Assembly: GCA_050701695.1 (NCBI GenBank)
Contig: JBOGDE010000212.1
Coordinates: 1-10,151 of the forward strand
Origin: Micromonosporaceae bacterium
Lineage (GTDB): Bacteria; Actinomycetota; Actinomycetes; Mycobacteriales; Micromonosporaceae
DNA length: 10,151 nucleotides
Reading direction: 5' to 3'
In this document: positions 1,292 to 7,220 of the stretch, one piece after another
Numbering within the stretch: position 1 is the first letter of the stretch
Layout: each line of letters opens with the position of its first letter
Made by a program: the position numbers and the translations under genes
The notes under the pieces: model-generated
Told to the model about the DNA's origin: nothing
Database searches by the model: none
The model's input: the letters and a program-made list of their open reading frames with translations, nothing else

Positions 1292-2466
1292 CAGTGGTCA
1301 CTCCCCTCGAAGCCCGCGTGGTAGTTCACGAACTGCTCCCGCTGGCCGGCCAGGATCGGCGAGCCGGTCGGGTAGACGTTGTCGAACATCGACTCCGGCT
1401 TCGGGTCCGGCAGCGCCAGCACCCGTTCTCGCAGGTCGACAGCGAGCGCGTCCGCCTCGGACTCCAGCTCCTGGTAGAAGCTGTCGTCGGCGACCTTGTG
1501 GTTGTCCAGGAACCGGCGTACCCGCAGGATCGGGTCCTTGGCCTGCCACGCCTCGACCTCGCTGGAGATCCGGTAGCGGGTCGGGTCGTCGGAGGTGGTG
1601 TGGGCACCCATCCGGTAGGTGTACGCCTCGATCAGGCTCGGCCCCTCGCCGGCGCGGGCGGCGTCCAGCGCCCGCTTGGTCACCGCGTAGGAGGCGAGTA
1701 CGTCGTTGCCGTCGACCCGGGTGCCGGGGAAGCCGTACCCGTTGGCCCGCTGGTAGATCGGGGCCCGGGCCTGGCGCTCGACCGGCTCGGAGATGGCGTA
1801 CTGGTTGTTCTGGCAGAAGAAGACCATCGGGGCGTTGAACACCGACGCCCAGACGAACGACTCGTTGACGTCGCCCTCACTGGTGGCGCCGTCGCCGAAG
1901 TACGCGATGACCGCCTCGCTGTCCTCGGAGCCGACCTTGCCGTCCTTGGCGATGCCCATCGCGTACCCGGTGGCGTGCAGGGTCTGCGCCCCGATCACCA
2001 CGGTGTACATCTGCATCTTGGCCTCGCGGGAGTCCCAGCCGCCGAAGTCGACGCCCCGGAACAGCCCGAGCGGCATGATCGGGTCGATCCCGCGGCACCA
2101 CAGCACCCCGTGCTCGCGGTACGTCGGGAACGCCATGTCCTGCGGCTGCAGCGCGCGCCCGGAGCCGATCTGCGCCGCCTCCTGGCCGAGCAGGCTGGCC
2201 CAGATGCCCAGCTCGCCCTGCCGCTGCAGCGCGGTCGCCTCGGCGTCGAGCCGCCGTACGATGACCAGGTCGCGGTACAGGCCGCGGTACTCCTCGTCGG
2301 TGAAGTCGACCGAGTACTCCGGGTGCTCGACGCGTTCGCCGTCGGGGGTCAGCAACTGGACGAAGTCGGGCTCGCTGCTGCGCGCCTTGCTGCGGGTGCC
2401 TCGCTTGGAGGCCGCGGGTCGGGTGCCCGCGCTGCTCCTGCTGCGGGCGACGTTGGCCTTCGCCAT
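1291..2466 (-). CDS. 2-oxo-acid dehydrogenase E1 component alpha subunit (TPP-dependent)
   Basis: The ORF contains the TPP-binding region ...YFGDGATSEGDVNESFVWASVFNAPMVFFCQNNQYAIS... and the phosphorylation-loop-like YRMGAHTTSDDP. I chose the ATG at 2466..2464 (MAKANVARSRSS...) as start because AAGGAGAG (reverse complement of 2469-2476) sits 5-6 nt upstream. The ORF track extends to 2724, but that R-rich N-terminal extension has no RBS and non-protein-like composition. The basic S/R/K-rich N-terminus is typical of actinomycete BkdA/PdhA-type E1-alpha. Confidence 0.85.
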   Translation of the reverse strand: MAKANVARSRSSAGTRPAASKRGTRSKARSSEPDFVQLLTPDGERVEHPEYSVDFTDEEYRGLYRDLVIVRRLDAEATALQRQGELGIWASLLGQEAAQIGSGRALQPQDMAFPTYREHGVLWCRGIDPIMPLGLFRGVDFGGWDSREAKMQMYTVVIGAQTLHATGYAMGIAKDGKVGSEDSEAVIAYFGDGATSEGDVNESFVWASVFNAPMVFFCQNNQYAISEPVERQARAPIYQRANGYGFPGTRVDGNDVLASYAVTKRALDAARAGEGPSLIEAYTYRMGAHTTSDDPTRYRISSEVEAWQAKDPILRVRRFLDNHKVADDSFYQELESEADALAVDLRERVLALPDPKPESMFDNVYPTGSPILAGQREQFVNYHAGFEGSDH

Positions 2467-2934
2467 CCTCTCTCCTTCTTCTCGCCAGTCGACGCGGGGT
2501 CGCCGCGCCACACTGCGGTGCGGCAGCCGTACCTCGTCCGGTTTGGAGAGGCCTACGGCGGTACGGGGATCCGCGGTGCCGGGTCGAGTGAGATCAGACA
2601 ACACGCTGACCGCCCGGCGGGCACGGACCTCCGCATCGGCGGTGAGGCGCGCAGCGGAAATCGCCGGGCGGCCCCGTTGCCGACGTACCAAGCATCGCAT
2701 GTGGGTGAGCCCAGCCACAGTCACGGGTCGATGAAGCGACCCTCCATCTCCCCCTGCGGCTGCGTGCCGTCCGGGAGGGAAGCGTTTTCCCGAAGCCGGG
2801 CGGCGCGAGCCCTCACAACTTTGGCAGGGCTCACTTATGGGAGAAATCCCTCGCTAGTCCCTCAAATCTTCCGCAATGAGGTCGCGCTCTGTGGGCCTTG
2901 CCGTCACTCTGGATAAGGACCGAACGGAGGTGCG
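2467..2934. promoter_or_regulatory. Divergent non-coding region, expected to hold the promoter and 5' UTR of the dehydrogenase operon (minus) and the promoter of the 2935 gene (plus)
   Basis: This is ~470 bp with no credible ORF on either strand. Segment 2800-2930 is distinctly less GC-rich than its surroundings: TTGGCAGGGCTCACTTATGGGAGAAATCCCTCGCTAGTCCCTCAAATCTTCCGCAATGAGG. It carries a -35-like TTGGCA at 2821-2826. I could not place exact -10 elements or a TSS with confidence. Confidence 0.3.
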
Positions 2935-3714
2935 ATGCGCCGGAGTGGTACCAGGAGGGACCTCGAGGTGGTACTCGAGGCCGTCGACCAGGCGCACCAC
3001 AGGGCGGCGGGAGACGATGCCCCGGCCGCCCCCATCGTCCTGCCCCCTCACCGGGTGCCGGTCGCGGGGGAACCCCCTGAAGCTGCCGCGTCCCTGGATG
3101 CGTCACGCGGCAGCTTCGCCCACCACGCGGCCGGCACCCCCGGTCACCGGGCCGGCGGGGTGCTGGGCTGGATTTCGGCGCACACCCAGCTGGTGGTGAT
3201 CGCGGCGTTGGTGGTGATCGCGTCGGTCGCCACCGGCATGGTGGTGACCCACGGCGCGCGACAGCTCGACGTCGCGCCGCGGGACGGCACCACGCCGTAC
3301 CTCGCGGTCGCCCCGAGCGGTCCGGTGCGGCCGCCGGCAAAGCCGGCGCCGGTGTCCGGCCAGCCGGAGGCCGACACCGCGGTACCCGCACCGCCTCCCG
3401 CCGCGCCGAATCCCACGCGGCCCACCGGTCAGCCGGAGGCGGCGGTGCCGGCCGTACCCCCAGGGGCCGACGGGTCGCCCGAGGTGGGTAGGTCGCCCGA
3501 GGTGGGTGAGGTGCCGCCGGTGCCCGAGCCCGACGATTCGGTGACCGAGCCGCCGGCGATGCCCACGCCGCCCGGCTGGTGGTGCCCCGCCGGCATGAAG
3601 CGGTACTTCGGACAGTGCGTGGTGCGCGTACCCCGGCTCCCCACGCCCCAGTTCCCGACACCGCGGCCACCGCCGCCGCCGGAGCCCGACGTGTCAGGAG
3701 TCTGGCCGCAGTAG
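2935..3714 (+). CDS. Proline-rich single-pass membrane protein with a C-terminal Cys pair (anti-sigma-factor-like architecture; function unknown)
   Basis: The start ATG at 2935 is preceded by GGAGG (2924-2928). The product has an ~80-aa basic N-terminal segment, then one hydrophobic helix (LGWISAHTQLVVIAALVVIASVATGMVV), then a ~140-aa Pro/Ala/Glu-rich low-complexity region. That region contains internal repeats: GQPEA x2, and GSPEVG/RSPEVG encoded by an 18-bp tandem duplication at 3473-3508. It ends WWCPAGMKRYFGQCVVRVP plus a PPPPEP tail. Coding is supported by third-position GC bias and the RBS. The low-complexity content lowers confidence. Confidence 0.6.
   Translation: MRRSGTRRDLEVVLEAVDQAHHRAAGDDAPAAPIVLPPHRVPVAGEPPEAAASLDASRGSFAHHAAGTPGHRAGGVLGWISAHTQLVVIAALVVIASVATGMVVTHGARQLDVAPRDGTTPYLAVAPSGPVRPPAKPAPVSGQPEADTAVPAPPPAAPNPTRPTGQPEAAVPAVPPGADGSPEVGRSPEVGEVPPVPEPDDSVTEPPAMPTPPGWWCPAGMKRYFGQCVVRVPRLPTPQFPTPRPPPPPEPDVSGVWPQ
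3473..3508 (+). repeat. 18-bp tandem direct repeat x2 (GGTCGCCCGAGGTGGGTA / GGTCGCCCGAGGTGGGTG) inside the Pro-rich gene
   Basis: 17 of 18 positions are identical. The repeat encodes the GSPEVG-RSPEVG duplication. Confidence 0.8.
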
Positions 3715-4374
3715 GGGCGGGTGCAGCCGGGTCGCCTGGCCCCGGCGGAACAGCTGGGCCGGACGTCCCCGGTCCCCGGTCGCGGTCTGGTCGGTCGCGA
3801 TCACGAAACCCGGGGTACCGGTCACCTTGCGGTGGAAGTTGCGGGGATCCAGCGGTACGCCCCAGACGACCTCGTACACCCGGCGGAGCTGGCCGACCGT
3901 GAACGCGGCCGGGCAGAACGCGGCGGCGAGCGGGGTGTACTCCAGCTTGGCGCGGGCGCGCTCCACGCCGTCGGTGAGGATCCGGTGGTGGTCGAAGGCG
4001 AGGCGGGTGCGGGTCAGGTCGGCGACGGGTCGCCACCGCGCCTCGGCGGCGTCGGAGCCGGCGGTCGGGGCGGGCAGGTCGGGCAGCAGCGCGAGGTACG
4101 CCACGGTGACCACCCGCATCCGTGGATCCCGCTCCGGGGCGCCGTAGCTGGCGAGCTGCTCCAGATGGCCGGCCTCGGCGCCGATCCCGGTCTCCTCGGC
4201 CAGCTCGCGCGCGGCCGCGTCGGGCAGGTCCTCGTCCGGTAGCACGAAGCCGCCGGGCAGCGCCCACTTCCCTTGGTACGGGGGGATGCCGCGACGTACC
4301 AGCAGGGCTTGCAGAGCGTCGTCGCGGACCGTGAGCACCACCAGGTCGACGGTGACCGCTGTCTTTTTCGTCAT
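3694..4374 (-). CDS. Nudix hydrolase domain protein with C-terminal winged-helix domain (NrtR-family ADP-ribose-responsive transcriptional regulator-like)
   Basis: The 226-aa ORF is MTKKTAVTVDLVVLTVRDD... It carries a Nudix box, GGFVLPDEDLPDAAARELAEETGI, matching Gx5Ex7REuxEExGu. The C-terminal half (FTVGQLRRVYEVVWGVPLDPRNFHRKV...) resembles the NrtR wHTH domain. The ATG at 4374 is preceded by GGAGGTG, though with a longish ~11-nt spacer. The 3' end overlaps the convergent 2935-3714 gene by 21 bp. Confidence 0.82.
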   Translation of the reverse strand: MTKKTAVTVDLVVLTVRDDALQALLVRRGIPPYQGKWALPGGFVLPDEDLPDAAARELAEETGIGAEAGHLEQLASYGAPERDPRMRVVTVAYLALLPDLPAPTAGSDAAEARWRPVADLTRTRLAFDHHRILTDGVERARAKLEYTPLAAAFCPAAFTVGQLRRVYEVVWGVPLDPRNFHRKVTGTPGFVIATDQTATGDRGRPAQLFRRGQATRLHPPLLRPDS

Positions 4375-4399
4375 GTTGACGAGAACACCTCCGGCTGAT

Positions 4400-4418
4400 T
4401 ATCGTCACTGTGACGATA
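4400..4418. promoter_or_regulatory. Perfect 19-bp palindrome TATCGTCACTGTGACGATA; candidate operator (most plausibly for the adjacent NrtR-like regulator) within the divergent promoter region
   Basis: I verified every base pair of the inverted repeat around the centre at T4409. It sits in a relatively AT-rich island (about 4396-4423, roughly 43% GC in a ~70% GC background). The island fills most of the 63-bp gap between the divergent starts at 4374 (minus) and 4438 (plus). A plausible sigma70-type promoter for the + operon is -35 TTGACG at 4376-4381, an 18-bp spacer, then -10 TATCGT at 4400-4405 (TANNNT). That placement would put the palindrome over the -10 and TSS. Confidence 0.5.
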
Positions 4419-4437
4419 TAACACGGAGGACGGGATC

Positions 4438-5493
4438 ATGGCAGACATCACGAGGTTCCCGCCGGTACGGCACCTGCGCGGCGGTGCCACCAGCTGGGTA
4501 CGGCACATGTCCGGCGGCACGGTGCGCCACGAGGGCGTCGGGCTGGCGTTCTGGTTCTGGCCGCGCACTGCGGTGCTCTCCGAGGTGCCGATCGACGACC
4601 GGGAGCTGCCGCTGCTGTTCCACGCGCGTACCGCCGACTTCGCCGACATCACGGTGCAGGCGACCGTGACCTACCGGGTGGCCTCGCCGGAGCTGGCGGC
4701 GCAGCGGCTCGACTTCGGCATCCACCCCGCCTCCGGGCTGTGGACCGGTCAGCCGCTGGACCAGCTCGCCACCGTGCTCGCCGAGCTGGCGCAGCAGCCG
4801 GCGCTCGATCTGGTCGCCGGGCTCGGCCTCGCCGATGCGGTCGCCGCCGTCACCCCGGTACGTGAGGCGATCACCGCCGCACTCGCCGCCGATCCCCGGC
4901 TGGCCGAGGTCGGCGTCACCGTGGTCGGGGTACGGGTGGTGGCGATCCGGCCCGAGCCCGAGCTGGAGCGGGCGCTGCAGACACCGACCCGGGAAGGCGT
5001 ACAGGCCGAAGCGGACCGGGCCACGTACGCCCGCCGGGCGCAGGCCGTGCAGCGGGAACGGGCAATCGCCGAGAACGAGCTGCAGAACCAGATCGAGCTG
5101 GCCCGCCGGCAGGAGCAGCTGGTCGAGCAGCAGGGCGCCAACTCCCGCCGGGAAGCCGAGCTTCGGTCGGCGTCCGAACTGGTCAAGGCCCAGGGGGTCG
5201 CCGAACGCGACATGGTCGCCGCGCAGGGCGCCGCCGAGCGGGAACGGCTCACCTCCGAGGCGAAGGCGCACGCCAAGCGGGTGGTCGGCGCCGCCGCGGC
5301 CGAGGCCGAGCAGGCCTGGGTCGCCGCGTACGCCGACGTGCCGATGGCACTGATCGCTCGGGAGATCTCGGCCAAGCTGCCACAGATCGGCGCGCTCACC
5401 ATCACCCCCGACGTGGTCACCGCCCTGCTGGAGAAGCTCGCCACCGGGGTACCGGCTTCCGCTGGGGCACCGGCTCCCGGGAGCCAGCGATGA
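4438..5493 (+). CDS. SPFH/band-7 (stomatin/flotillin-like) domain protein, apparently lacking an N-terminal transmembrane segment, with a long C-terminal coiled-coil
   Basis: The 351-aa ORF has the band-7 signature ...FADITVQATVTYRV.... A Glu/Ala/Arg/Gln-rich helical region follows (ERAIAENELQNQIELARRQEQLVEQQGANSRREAELRS...), typical of SPFH C-terminal oligomerisation segments. A strong RBS, GGAGGA (4425-4430), lies 7 nt before the ATG. Confidence 0.85.
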   Translation: MADITRFPPVRHLRGGATSWVRHMSGGTVRHEGVGLAFWFWPRTAVLSEVPIDDRELPLLFHARTADFADITVQATVTYRVASPELAAQRLDFGIHPASGLWTGQPLDQLATVLAELAQQPALDLVAGLGLADAVAAVTPVREAITAALAADPRLAEVGVTVVGVRVVAIRPEPELERALQTPTREGVQAEADRATYARRAQAVQRERAIAENELQNQIELARRQEQLVEQQGANSRREAELRSASELVKAQGVAERDMVAAQGAAERERLTSEAKAHAKRVVGAAAAEAEQAWVAAYADVPMALIAREISAKLPQIGALTITPDVVTALLEKLATGVPASAGAPAPGSQR

Positions 5494-5567
5494 GCGAGCT
5501 TGCGAGCGAATTGTCGGCACAGTGCCTGCGCGAAGCGCCGCCCGAGCGAAGCGAGGGTGTGCGGTGA
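5490..5567 (+). CDS. Possible 25-codon micro-ORF (MSELASELSAQCLREAPPERSEGVR) bridging the SPFH and kinase genes
   Basis: The ATG at 5490 overlaps the SPFH stop as ATGA (5490-5493). The TGA at 5565-5567 overlaps the downstream GTG start as GTGA (5564-5567). This could be chance. It has no RBS of its own. It is purely an observation from the sequence. Confidence 0.2.
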   Translation: MSELASELSAQCLREAPPERSEGVR

Positions 5568-6487
5568 GTCTGCTGCCCCGGGTGGTGGTGGTCCACCGCC
5601 GCAGTGAGTACGACGAGCTGCTCGCCCGGCACGGCACGCCGGGCGCAGCGGCGTACTTCCTGAGGCAGCGGGGGCGTTCGCTCGACGACGTGACCGTCCG
5701 GCACGAGGCGTTGACGGAGGCGCTGGCGGCGGTGGCGGCGGCCGTACCGGCGGACTGGCGGCGCGGATCGGTGCGGCGCGAGGACCTGCCCCGGTTCCTG
5801 TTCGGGCCCGAAGACATCGTGGTGACCGTCGGCCAGGACGGGCTGGTCGCCAACGTCGCGAAGTATCTCGACGGGCAGCCGGTGGTCGGTGTCGACCCGG
5901 AGTCCGGCCGCAACCCCGGCGTGCTGGCCCGGCACGCCGCCGGCGCGGTCGGCGAGCTGCTGCGCGCGGTCGCCGCCGGGAGTGCCGAGACGCAGCAGCG
6001 CACCATGGTCGAGGCCGAGCTGGACGACGGCCAGACCCTGTACGGCCTCAACGAGATCTACGTCGGTCACGCCGGCCACCAGTCGGCCCGGTACGTCGTG
6101 TCTGTAGCGGGGACTGCCGCTCGCACCGTGGGTCGTACGGGGGCCACGCGGCGCGAGCGGCAGTCCTCCTCCGGGATCGTGATCGGGACCGGCACCGGCG
6201 CCACCGGCTGGTGCGCCTCGATCGCGGGCGAGCGCGCGACGCCGCCCGCGCTGCCGGCACCCGGGGCCGCCACACTGTGCTGGTTCGTACGGGAGGCCTG
6301 GCCCTCGCCGGTCACCGGCACCAGCCTGACCGGCGGCGTGCTGGCCGAGGGGGAGTCGCTGGAGGTGGCCTGCGAGAGCGAACGGCTGGTGGCGTTCGCC
6401 GACGGGCTGGAAGCCGATCATCTGGCGCTCACCTGGGGTCAGCGGCTCACCGTACGGGTCTCCTCCCGCCGGCTCAACCTGGTCTGA
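5564..6487 (+). CDS. Atypical ATP-NAD kinase-fold protein (NAD kinase / diacylglycerol-kinase catalytic superfamily), non-canonical GQDG in place of GGDG
   Basis: The product carries VVTVGQDGLVANVAKYL (compare NAD kinase GGDGT[LM]L), YGLNEIYVGH (compare the NE[VI] motif) and SGIVIGTGTGATGWCASIAGE (compare DG...STPTGSTAYSLSAGGP). I chose the GTG at 5564 because GAGGG sits 6 nt upstream. An in-frame GTG at 5522, the ORF-track start, is the alternative. The gene lies in the same operon as the SPFH gene. Confidence 0.72.
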   Translation: MSLLPRVVVVHRRSEYDELLARHGTPGAAAYFLRQRGRSLDDVTVRHEALTEALAAVAAAVPADWRRGSVRREDLPRFLFGPEDIVVTVGQDGLVANVAKYLDGQPVVGVDPESGRNPGVLARHAAGAVGELLRAVAAGSAETQQRTMVEAELDDGQTLYGLNEIYVGHAGHQSARYVVSVAGTAARTVGRTGATRRERQSSSGIVIGTGTGATGWCASIAGERATPPALPAPGAATLCWFVREAWPSPVTGTSLTGGVLAEGESLEVACESERLVAFADGLEADHLALTWGQRLTVRVSSRRLNLV

Positions 6488-7053: not shown

Positions 7054-7220
7054 AGCATGCACGGTACCTCCTCACGATTCGAACATGTGTACGAGATCCT
7101 AGATGGGTGGTACAACGAAACGGTGCGAGGACGAGCGTCGCCCAGGTGGTGGCGGGAAGTTGACGGAAGCTGGCGCGGATGCCGGTGGTCGGCGCCGAGG
7201 CGGCTGGTTAGCGTCGGCGG

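Follow-up and report, generated by a model that had tools for sequence, protein, structure and literature searches.

Among the described systems closest to the locus analysed here, the NrtR of Mycobacterium smegmatis (MsNrtR; Gao et al. 2019, PMC6800001) is an auto-repressor whose binding to DNA, as followed by EMSA and SPR, is disrupted by ADP-ribose (ADPR), and its operator is a single 23-bp palindrome, GTTTTCGA-N7-TCGAAAAC, in the nrtR-nadABC intergenic region. For Shewanella oneidensis NrtR, the main text of Rodionov 2008 (PMC2330246) reports that both tandem sites of prs-nadV are occupied, with two EMSA shifts, and that ADPR causes release; together, Synechocystis and Shewanella (main text of PMC2330246) and M. 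smegmatis (PMC6800001) provide the precedents for binding of NrtR boxes. By the rule given in the same main text, NrtR sites are palindromes of 21 bp in which GT occupies positions 6-7 and AC positions 15-16 (core GT-N7-AC). The family also includes BtAraR, whose ligand is arabinose (PMC4666351). Of direct relevance to the present locus, Table 1 of Rodionov 2008 (PMC2330246) predicts the arrangement 'nrtR2<#>nrtX-nrtY' for Kineococcus and Frankia (group Actinobacteria-2b), and for Streptomyces the layout '#nrtR2; #nrtX-nrtY', in which each locus has its own site. In the main text of that study nrtX and nrtY are given as genes of unknown function and are listed without locus tags, and a literature search for 'nrtX' returned the 2008 paper alone.

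The window, i.e. the whole stretch of 10,151 nt analysed here, is a contig of a Micromonosporaceae metagenome-assembled genome and has a GC content of 72%. Its nrtR gene (3694-4374, minus strand; GC3 0.91) encodes a protein of 226 aa consisting of a Nudix domain (Pfam NUDIX: 82.5 bits against a cut-off of 21.1, E=3.5e-23) and an NrtR winged-helix domain (Pfam NrtR_WHD: 53.4 bits against a cut-off of 27, E=3e-14), which is the N-terminal Nudix-like plus C-terminal winged-helix organization that defines the NrtR family. In PDB, the protein matched NrtR-family structures, DNA-bound ones among them: BtAraR (5bs6) and Shewanella NrtR (3gz5/3gz6), over both domains (E=4.8e-31). Its Nudix box, located by regular expression at residues 42-64 (GFVLPDEDLPDAAARELAEETGI), is intact, and so the regulator may hydrolyse its own ligand. 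It is not an equivalog of the NCBIfam 'ADPR responsive transcriptional repressor' (NF050029), for which it scored 142 bits against a cut-off of 400. At its 3′ end, nrtR overlaps by 21 nt with a converging ORF of 259 aa (2935-3714, plus strand; GC3 0.87) that is without a family match, and genes for the alpha and beta subunits of 2-oxoacid dehydrogenase E1 occupy 308-2724 on the minus strand. E1 alpha/beta genes are also found near nrtR in Micromonospora rifamycinica (locus L003), and the neighbourhood is thus partly syntenic.

Across a divergent gap of 63 bp (4375-4437), nrtR faces two plus-strand genes that are predicted to be regulated: (i) an SPFH/Band 7 gene (4438-5493; 351 aa; Pfam Band_7, E=3e-16), whose product has a long, charged and coiled-coil-like C-terminal part; (ii) an NAD-kinase-like gene (5564-6487; 307 aa), with a GTG start at 5564 in an ORF that is open from 5522. 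The former is probably the 'nrtX' of Rodionov 2008 and the latter probably its 'nrtY', the name used below. In orthologous loci nrtY always follows the SPFH gene. A Shine-Dalgarno-like GGAGGA was read from the sequence at 4425-4430 (plus strand), 7 nt 5′ of the SPFH ATG. A role of the SPFH operon in anti-phage defence was considered and rejected: PADLOC was blank for SPFH and nrtY and returned a weak generic Nudix match for the regulator.

The divergent gap has a GC content of 52%, as compared with 72% for the window, and is flanked by two genes with strong coding signal (GC3 0.90-0.91). In the initial annotation it had been described as the only low-GC stretch of the locus; the 60-mer at 4362-4421 (43% GC) is indeed the lowest, but other such stretches exist at 7061-7120 (48%) and 2811-2870 (50%). 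Base by base, the perfect 19-bp palindrome claimed for this gap was borne out: TATCGTCACTGTGACGATA at 4400-4418 is a perfect 9-1-9 inverted repeat, its reverse complement being identical except for the central base, and its symmetry stops there, the flanking positions 4399 and 4419 both being T. The distances given for it are likewise correct: 4418 lies 20 bp from the SPFH ATG (4438), and 4400 lies 26 bp from the regulator start (4374). Its rarity by chance, however, had been overstated, as 0.77 perfect palindromes (9-bp arms, loop of 0-3 nt) are expected per window in mononucleotide shuffles; for a perfect palindrome inside the 63-bp gap, shuffles of the gap gave a P value of about 5e-4. The chance argument is not decisive, and the weight of the palindrome rests on conservation rather than on statistics.

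The pattern TCGTCANNNTGACGA matched the window with zero mismatches at exactly two places, 4399-4419 (box 1) and 4365-4385 (box 2), and for this reason the functional unit is taken to be a 21-bp box. Box 1, which reads TTATCGTCACTGTGACGATAT on the plus strand, contains the palindrome and is centred at 4409, 29 nt from the SPFH ATG. Box 2, TTTTCGTCATGTTGACGAGAA on the plus strand, is centred at 4375, 34 bp from the centre of box 1, and overlaps the nrtR start codon (CAT 4372-4374). The palindrome, previously proposed as a lone operator, is therefore the core of box 1, but it is one member of a tandem pair whose other member, box 2, had been overlooked. In orthologs, too, the intergenic region holds a pair of related palindromes. 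The GT-N7-AC core (G6T7, A15C16) is present in both boxes of the window, reading TCGTCA-N3-TGACGA. Box 1 is perfectly symmetric over its inner 19 bp, box 2 is symmetric in its matching TCGTCA/TGACGA cores, and the consensus of the orthologs is symmetric as well. The 21-bp unit consists of TCGTCA-N3-TGACGA with T/A-rich flanks, and the extra C/G pair that gives the perfect 9-1-9 repeat in this copy is unconserved.

Relatives of the regulator were sought in metagenome contigs, which yielded 80 loci of about 59-75% identity; these, together with loci from an exact protein look-up, made up an orthologous set of 74 non-redundant loci, each with 150 nt or more of upstream sequence, and the set was picked by NrtR homology and blind to the DNA motif. 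At least one box was present in 59 of the 74 loci and a tandem pair in 54. A divergent SPFH gene was found in 41, and 40 of these 41 carry the tandem pair, so that the palindrome is conserved at orthologous loci, in the form of a sharply bounded 21-bp box. The spacing of the 61 detected pairs is nearly fixed, at 33 bp in 29 and 34 bp in 26 (55 of 61 together). In nrtR orientation, the consensus of the 55 anchored pairs is TTnTCGTCAnnntGACGATAA for box 1 and TTcTCGTCAAgntGACGATTA for box 2. Over these pairs, the information content is 1.4-2.0 bits at the core positions in both half-sites of both boxes, with 2.0 bits at G6T7 and A15C16 (55 aligned orthologous loci), and is essentially zero at the three central bases and outside the boxes. 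The box consensus, TTnTCGTCA-N3-TGACGAtAA, agrees with the published NrtR rule (PMC2330246). Such a two-box pattern, conserved at the level of sequence, is a classic phylogenetic footprint of the kind left by protein binding.

Seen from the SPFH side, each of the 78 non-redundant loci that include the SPFH start, some of them chosen through the box pattern itself, carries a box in the 150 nt before that start, and in most of them the centre of the nearest box is 20-35 nt from the start codon, as compared with 29 nt in the window. In more diverged NrtR homologues, either the boxes have drifted with GTCA-N3-TGAC being kept, or the regulator lies behind a nicotinamidase-like gene. In loci L061 and L067, for example, an NrtR homologue (62% identity) is second after an isochorismatase/nicotinamidase-like ORF (motif CGIATDHCV), and no box was found within 200 nt upstream of nrtR.

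The initial annotation had also proposed a -35 and a -10 element for the plus-strand operon, and these are the sole sigma-70-like match in 4250-4550 (shuffles of the region: 0.0), embedded in the two boxes. In this candidate SPFH promoter (4376-4405, plus strand), the -35 hexamer TTGACG (4376-4381) lies in box 2 and the -10 hexamer TATCGT (4400-4405) in box 1, with a spacer of 18 nt; from these positions, SPFH transcription would start near 4412. The distance from box 1 to the SPFH gene leaves space for a short leader bearing the GGAGGA at 4425-4430. The box spacing of 33/34 bp corresponds to a promoter spacer of 17/18 nt and, in the orthologs, box 2 has one conserved base that breaks its symmetry, an A beside the centre, by which TTGAC is completed on the SPFH strand. 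As the hexamers lie within the boxes, their conservation is inseparable from that of the operator.

On the nrtR side, most orthologs have a TAnnnT element after box 2, and their nrtR looks leaderless or short-leadered. This element is absent in the window, as the nrtR ATG falls inside box 2, and no convincing promoter hexamers for nrtR were found there. Given this position of the ATG, the nrtR transcript in the window must begin upstream, at or beyond box 1, and to propose GATAAT (4403-4398, minus strand) as an nrtR promoter element is a guess.

It is highly probable that, of two predicted 21-bp NrtR operators in the control region shared by the divergent nrtR and SPFH-NAD-kinase-like genes, the palindrome represents the one proximal to the promoter. 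The earlier proposal of an autoregulatory repressor operator for both divergent transcripts is consistent with the conservation, the motif fit and the geometry described above, but as a tandem pair and not as a single site. Each box would be bound by a dimer of the Nudix/winged-helix NrtR encoded next to it. Since the -35 lies in box 2 and the -10 in box 1, the SPFH promoter would be wholly covered by two NrtR dimers: occupancy of box 2 would mask the -35, occupancy of box 1 would mask the -10 and the likely start, and RNA polymerase would be excluded. With box 2 over its start codon and box 1 at the start of its transcript, nrtR would be repressed too (autoregulation). By analogy with characterised members of the family, ADPR or a related NAD-derived nucleotide at the Nudix domain would cause release of the DNA, and both transcripts would be induced. 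Most likely, then, NrtR switches off its own gene and the operon of a membrane-scaffold-type protein and an NAD-kinase-like enzyme through predicted binding to these boxes. For this locus, the binding of NrtR, its role as a repressor, its effector and the sites where transcription starts are predictions, with repression and ADPR release carried over from the characterised regulators.

To follow the distribution of the motif, 185,579 species genomes were scanned with the pattern TNTCGTCANNNNGACGATWA, and at least 120 stretches were found; the regulon counts below are a sample among the matches listed, 61 of which are actinobacterial and 59 from other phyla. Of the 61 actinobacterial matches listed, 55 sit upstream of relevant genes: 23 belong to nrtR/SPFH-nrtY divergons of many families (including Kribbella, Nocardioides, Modestobacter, Actinoplanes, Amycolatopsis and Jiangella), 14 precede SPFH-nrtY alone (all in Streptomyces and without nrtR in the 8-kb block), and eight, seven, one and two are found upstream of nadA, a nadB-nadC fusion, nadE and nrtR alone, respectively. 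As a control, 49 of the 59 matches listed from other phyla fall within long ORFs, and among these 59 none has a partner box 33-34 bp away. The search near NAD genes that had been suggested in the initial annotation revealed, in other Actinobacteria, matching boxes that precede nadA, nadB-nadC and nadE, but the idea of a lineage-specific motif did not hold, as the box is common to many actinobacterial families. The motif tracks the regulator together with NAD/ADPR genes, as expected of a predicted NrtR operator.

Single boxes upstream of nadA, the nadB-nadC fusion or nadE were seen in the Streptosporangiales genera Nonomuraea, Planotetraspora, Planomonospora, Microbispora, Sphaerisporangium and Acrocarpospora (loci including L095, L113, L136, L164, L167, L183, L184, L197 and L203), and in locus L087 two boxes lie 26 bp apart upstream of nadA. 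Where tandem-box NrtR orthologs occur without SPFH, the divergent neighbour is an ADP-ribosylglycohydrolase fusion, the NMN transporter PnuC or a gene with a phosphoribosyltransferase domain. In locus L024, the ADP-ribosylglycohydrolase is fused to a dual-specificity-phosphatase domain (1341-2879, minus strand) and is divergent from an NrtR ortholog of ~71% identity; this layout recurs in L020-L023 and L032. PnuC takes that place in L069 (1593-2261, minus strand) and L052, and the phosphoribosyltransferase-domain protein in L037 (340-1269, minus strand). In Streptomyces sp. NRRL S-87 (locus L189), a box at ~2381 (TAATCGTCACCATGACGAGAA) lies ~80 nt upstream of a gene whose 608-aa product has a SIR2_2 domain and may be an enzyme that consumes NAD, although this is one case and could be chance. 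Matches in three species of Streptococcus (loci L089, L114 and L170) had looked interesting because NrtR occurs in that genus; they were rejected as operators, since they lie inside a conserved ORF of ~375 aa and represent a coding coincidence.

To characterise the second gene of the predicted target operon, nrtY was compared with known families and structures. As a single sequence it gave no Pfam match and, in the PDB search, only hits with E>0.02; a profile of 28 nrtY orthologs reached E=3.2e-16 with human mitochondrial NADK2 (7r4j), and with bacterial NAD kinases its E values were between 1e-8 and 1e-5. The same NADK2 structure is the best PDB match of the AF2 model of nrtY (pLDDT 90.2; E=5.9e-17, TM 0.69), and the best 50 PDB structure matches of the model are all NAD/NADH kinases except one 'putative kinase' entry. 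Matches to NCBIfam NAD-kinase models are weak and below cut-off, and Pfam NAD_kinase was matched weakly, below the gathering score, in 16 of the 28 orthologs. Among these orthologs, GQDG or GPDG stands in place of GGDG, and NE and GTGTGATGW are invariant or nearly so. Homologues in public sources are named 'ATP-NAD kinase' in some cases and 'hypothetical' in others. As modelled, the nrtY product has the two-domain NAD-kinase fold and is closest to mitochondrial NADK2. The operon is linked to NAD(P) metabolism because nrtY is NAD-kinase-like, even though the window is without a classical NAD biosynthesis gene. A 'nadK2' paralog has been noted in mycelial actinobacteria (PMC6675116), and nrtY may be this paralog.

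Other explanations of the palindrome have to be set against the observations made on this locus, namely its sequence, conservation, geometry, gene families and motif distribution. NrtR might bind the boxes as an activator or dual regulator, or respond to an effector other than ADPR, e.g. NAD, NaAD or NADP(H), given that both the effector and the sign of the window NrtR are assigned purely by analogy. Ligands do vary in the family, as with arabinose in BtAraR (PMC4666351), the main text of PMC2330246 describes soNrtR binding as affected by several nucleotides besides ADPR, and with an NAD-kinase-like predicted target a product or substrate signal is conceivable. We nevertheless regard a different sign or effector as unlikely, as boxes over the -35, the -10, the likely start and the nrtR start codon occupy positions typical of repression, and the characterised actinobacterial and proteobacterial NrtRs are both repressors that are released by ADPR (PMC6800001, PMC2330246).

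That the boxes serve another, unlinked transcription factor and are near nrtR incidentally is considerably less probable. This idea could draw on Streptomyces, where boxes precede SPFH-nrtY without nrtR in the 8-kb block, but in Table 1 of Rodionov 2008 this genus has a separate '#nrtR2' locus with its own site (PMC2330246). Moreover, the boxes lie directly upstream of nrtR in 59 of the 74 homology-chosen loci whatever the neighbour gene, the box sequence drifts along with divergence of the NrtR protein, the motif architecture is that of the NrtR family, and the targets are related to NAD/ADPR. Least credible of all is a symmetry that arose by chance or from the promoter only, or one whose role is in RNA, in a hairpin or a terminator. 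By expectation a shuffled window holds about 0.8 perfect palindromes with 9-bp arms, and the hexamers TTGACG and TATCGT do fall within the boxes; yet both half-sites of both boxes are conserved well beyond the hexamers in dozens of loci. It is the sequence that is conserved rather than the pairing, the 3-nt centre varies freely and, with the predicted start inside the palindrome, the full hairpin would not be transcribed. For the palindrome region Rfam gave no match at E<=1, no terminator-like site overlaps the palindrome and a U-tract is absent. The reading as an RNA element or terminator was rejected, the minimum-energy RNA fold of 4395-4440 leaving the palindrome unused.

With the palindrome read as one of a tandem pair of NrtR operators, the locus is, on this sequence-based evidence, a well-supported but ordinary example of the NrtR switch. 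The divergon type was already predicted in 2008, and the mode of action of NrtR is unchanged by the present results. What is added here is the second box, the fixed spacing and how it relates to the promoter, the wide occurrence of the motif in Actinobacteria and an NADK2-like second target. The result is a clean two-box operator model, with fixed 33/34-bp spacing and embedded promoter hexamers, for the least understood actinobacterial branch of NrtR, and a previously unnamed target operon is tied to NAD(P) metabolism through an NADK2-like kinase. The motif TTnTCGTCA-N3-TGACGAtAA is useful for regulon annotation, as it finds nadA, nadB-nadC, nadE, pnuC and the ADP-ribosylglycohydrolase gene in Actinobacteria. 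A more tentative suggestion, towards which we lean less than against it, is that the tandem operator places a bacterial NAD(H) kinase of the NADK2 type, along with an SPFH scaffold protein, under a sensor of NAD breakdown products. If true, many Actinobacteria would couple NAD consumption, with ADPR as the signal, to inducible NADP(H) synthesis, possibly in a membrane-organised manner, and nrtX-nrtY, listed as 'unknown' in the NrtR regulon of 2008, would turn out to be an SPFH/NADK2-type module.

As compared with known systems, the window resembles that of MsNrtR in having an actinobacterial Nudix-winged-helix regulator and a palindromic site between divergent genes, and the frame TTnTCG-N9-CGAnAA of its boxes is shared with the half-site frame TTTTCG-N9-CGAAAA of MsNrtR. 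In contrast to the window boxes, the MsNrtR operator is without the GTCA/TGAC core, and its target is nadA-nadB-nadC rather than SPFH plus an NAD-kinase-like gene. With S. oneidensis NrtR (3gz5/3gz6), the locus shares two adjacent boxes and a regulator that matches over both domains, whereas the Shewanella motif is proteobacterial, its target genes are different and its regulator lies upstream in the same direction. The nrtY product, in turn, is like NADK2 and bacterial NAD kinases (7r4j, 7n29, 1u0r and 2an1) in its two-domain fold, the Asp-Gly of the GGDG loop, the NE and the glycine-rich GTGTGATGW, but unlike them in its identity of ~17-18%, its GQDG/GPDG and its scores below the Pfam and NCBIfam cut-offs. 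The closest counterpart is the Actinobacteria-2b regulon, both layouts of which were recovered with SPFH-nrtY (23 divergons and 14 Streptomyces loci among the matches listed). Since architecture and taxa agree, the window almost certainly belongs to this predicted nrtR2/nrtX-nrtY regulon as a further member, and on the same grounds nrtX probably corresponds to the SPFH gene and nrtY to the NAD-kinase-like gene. Relative to the main text of Rodionov 2008, the tandem arrangement of the boxes, their fixed 33/34-bp spacing and their overlap with the promoter hexamers are described here.
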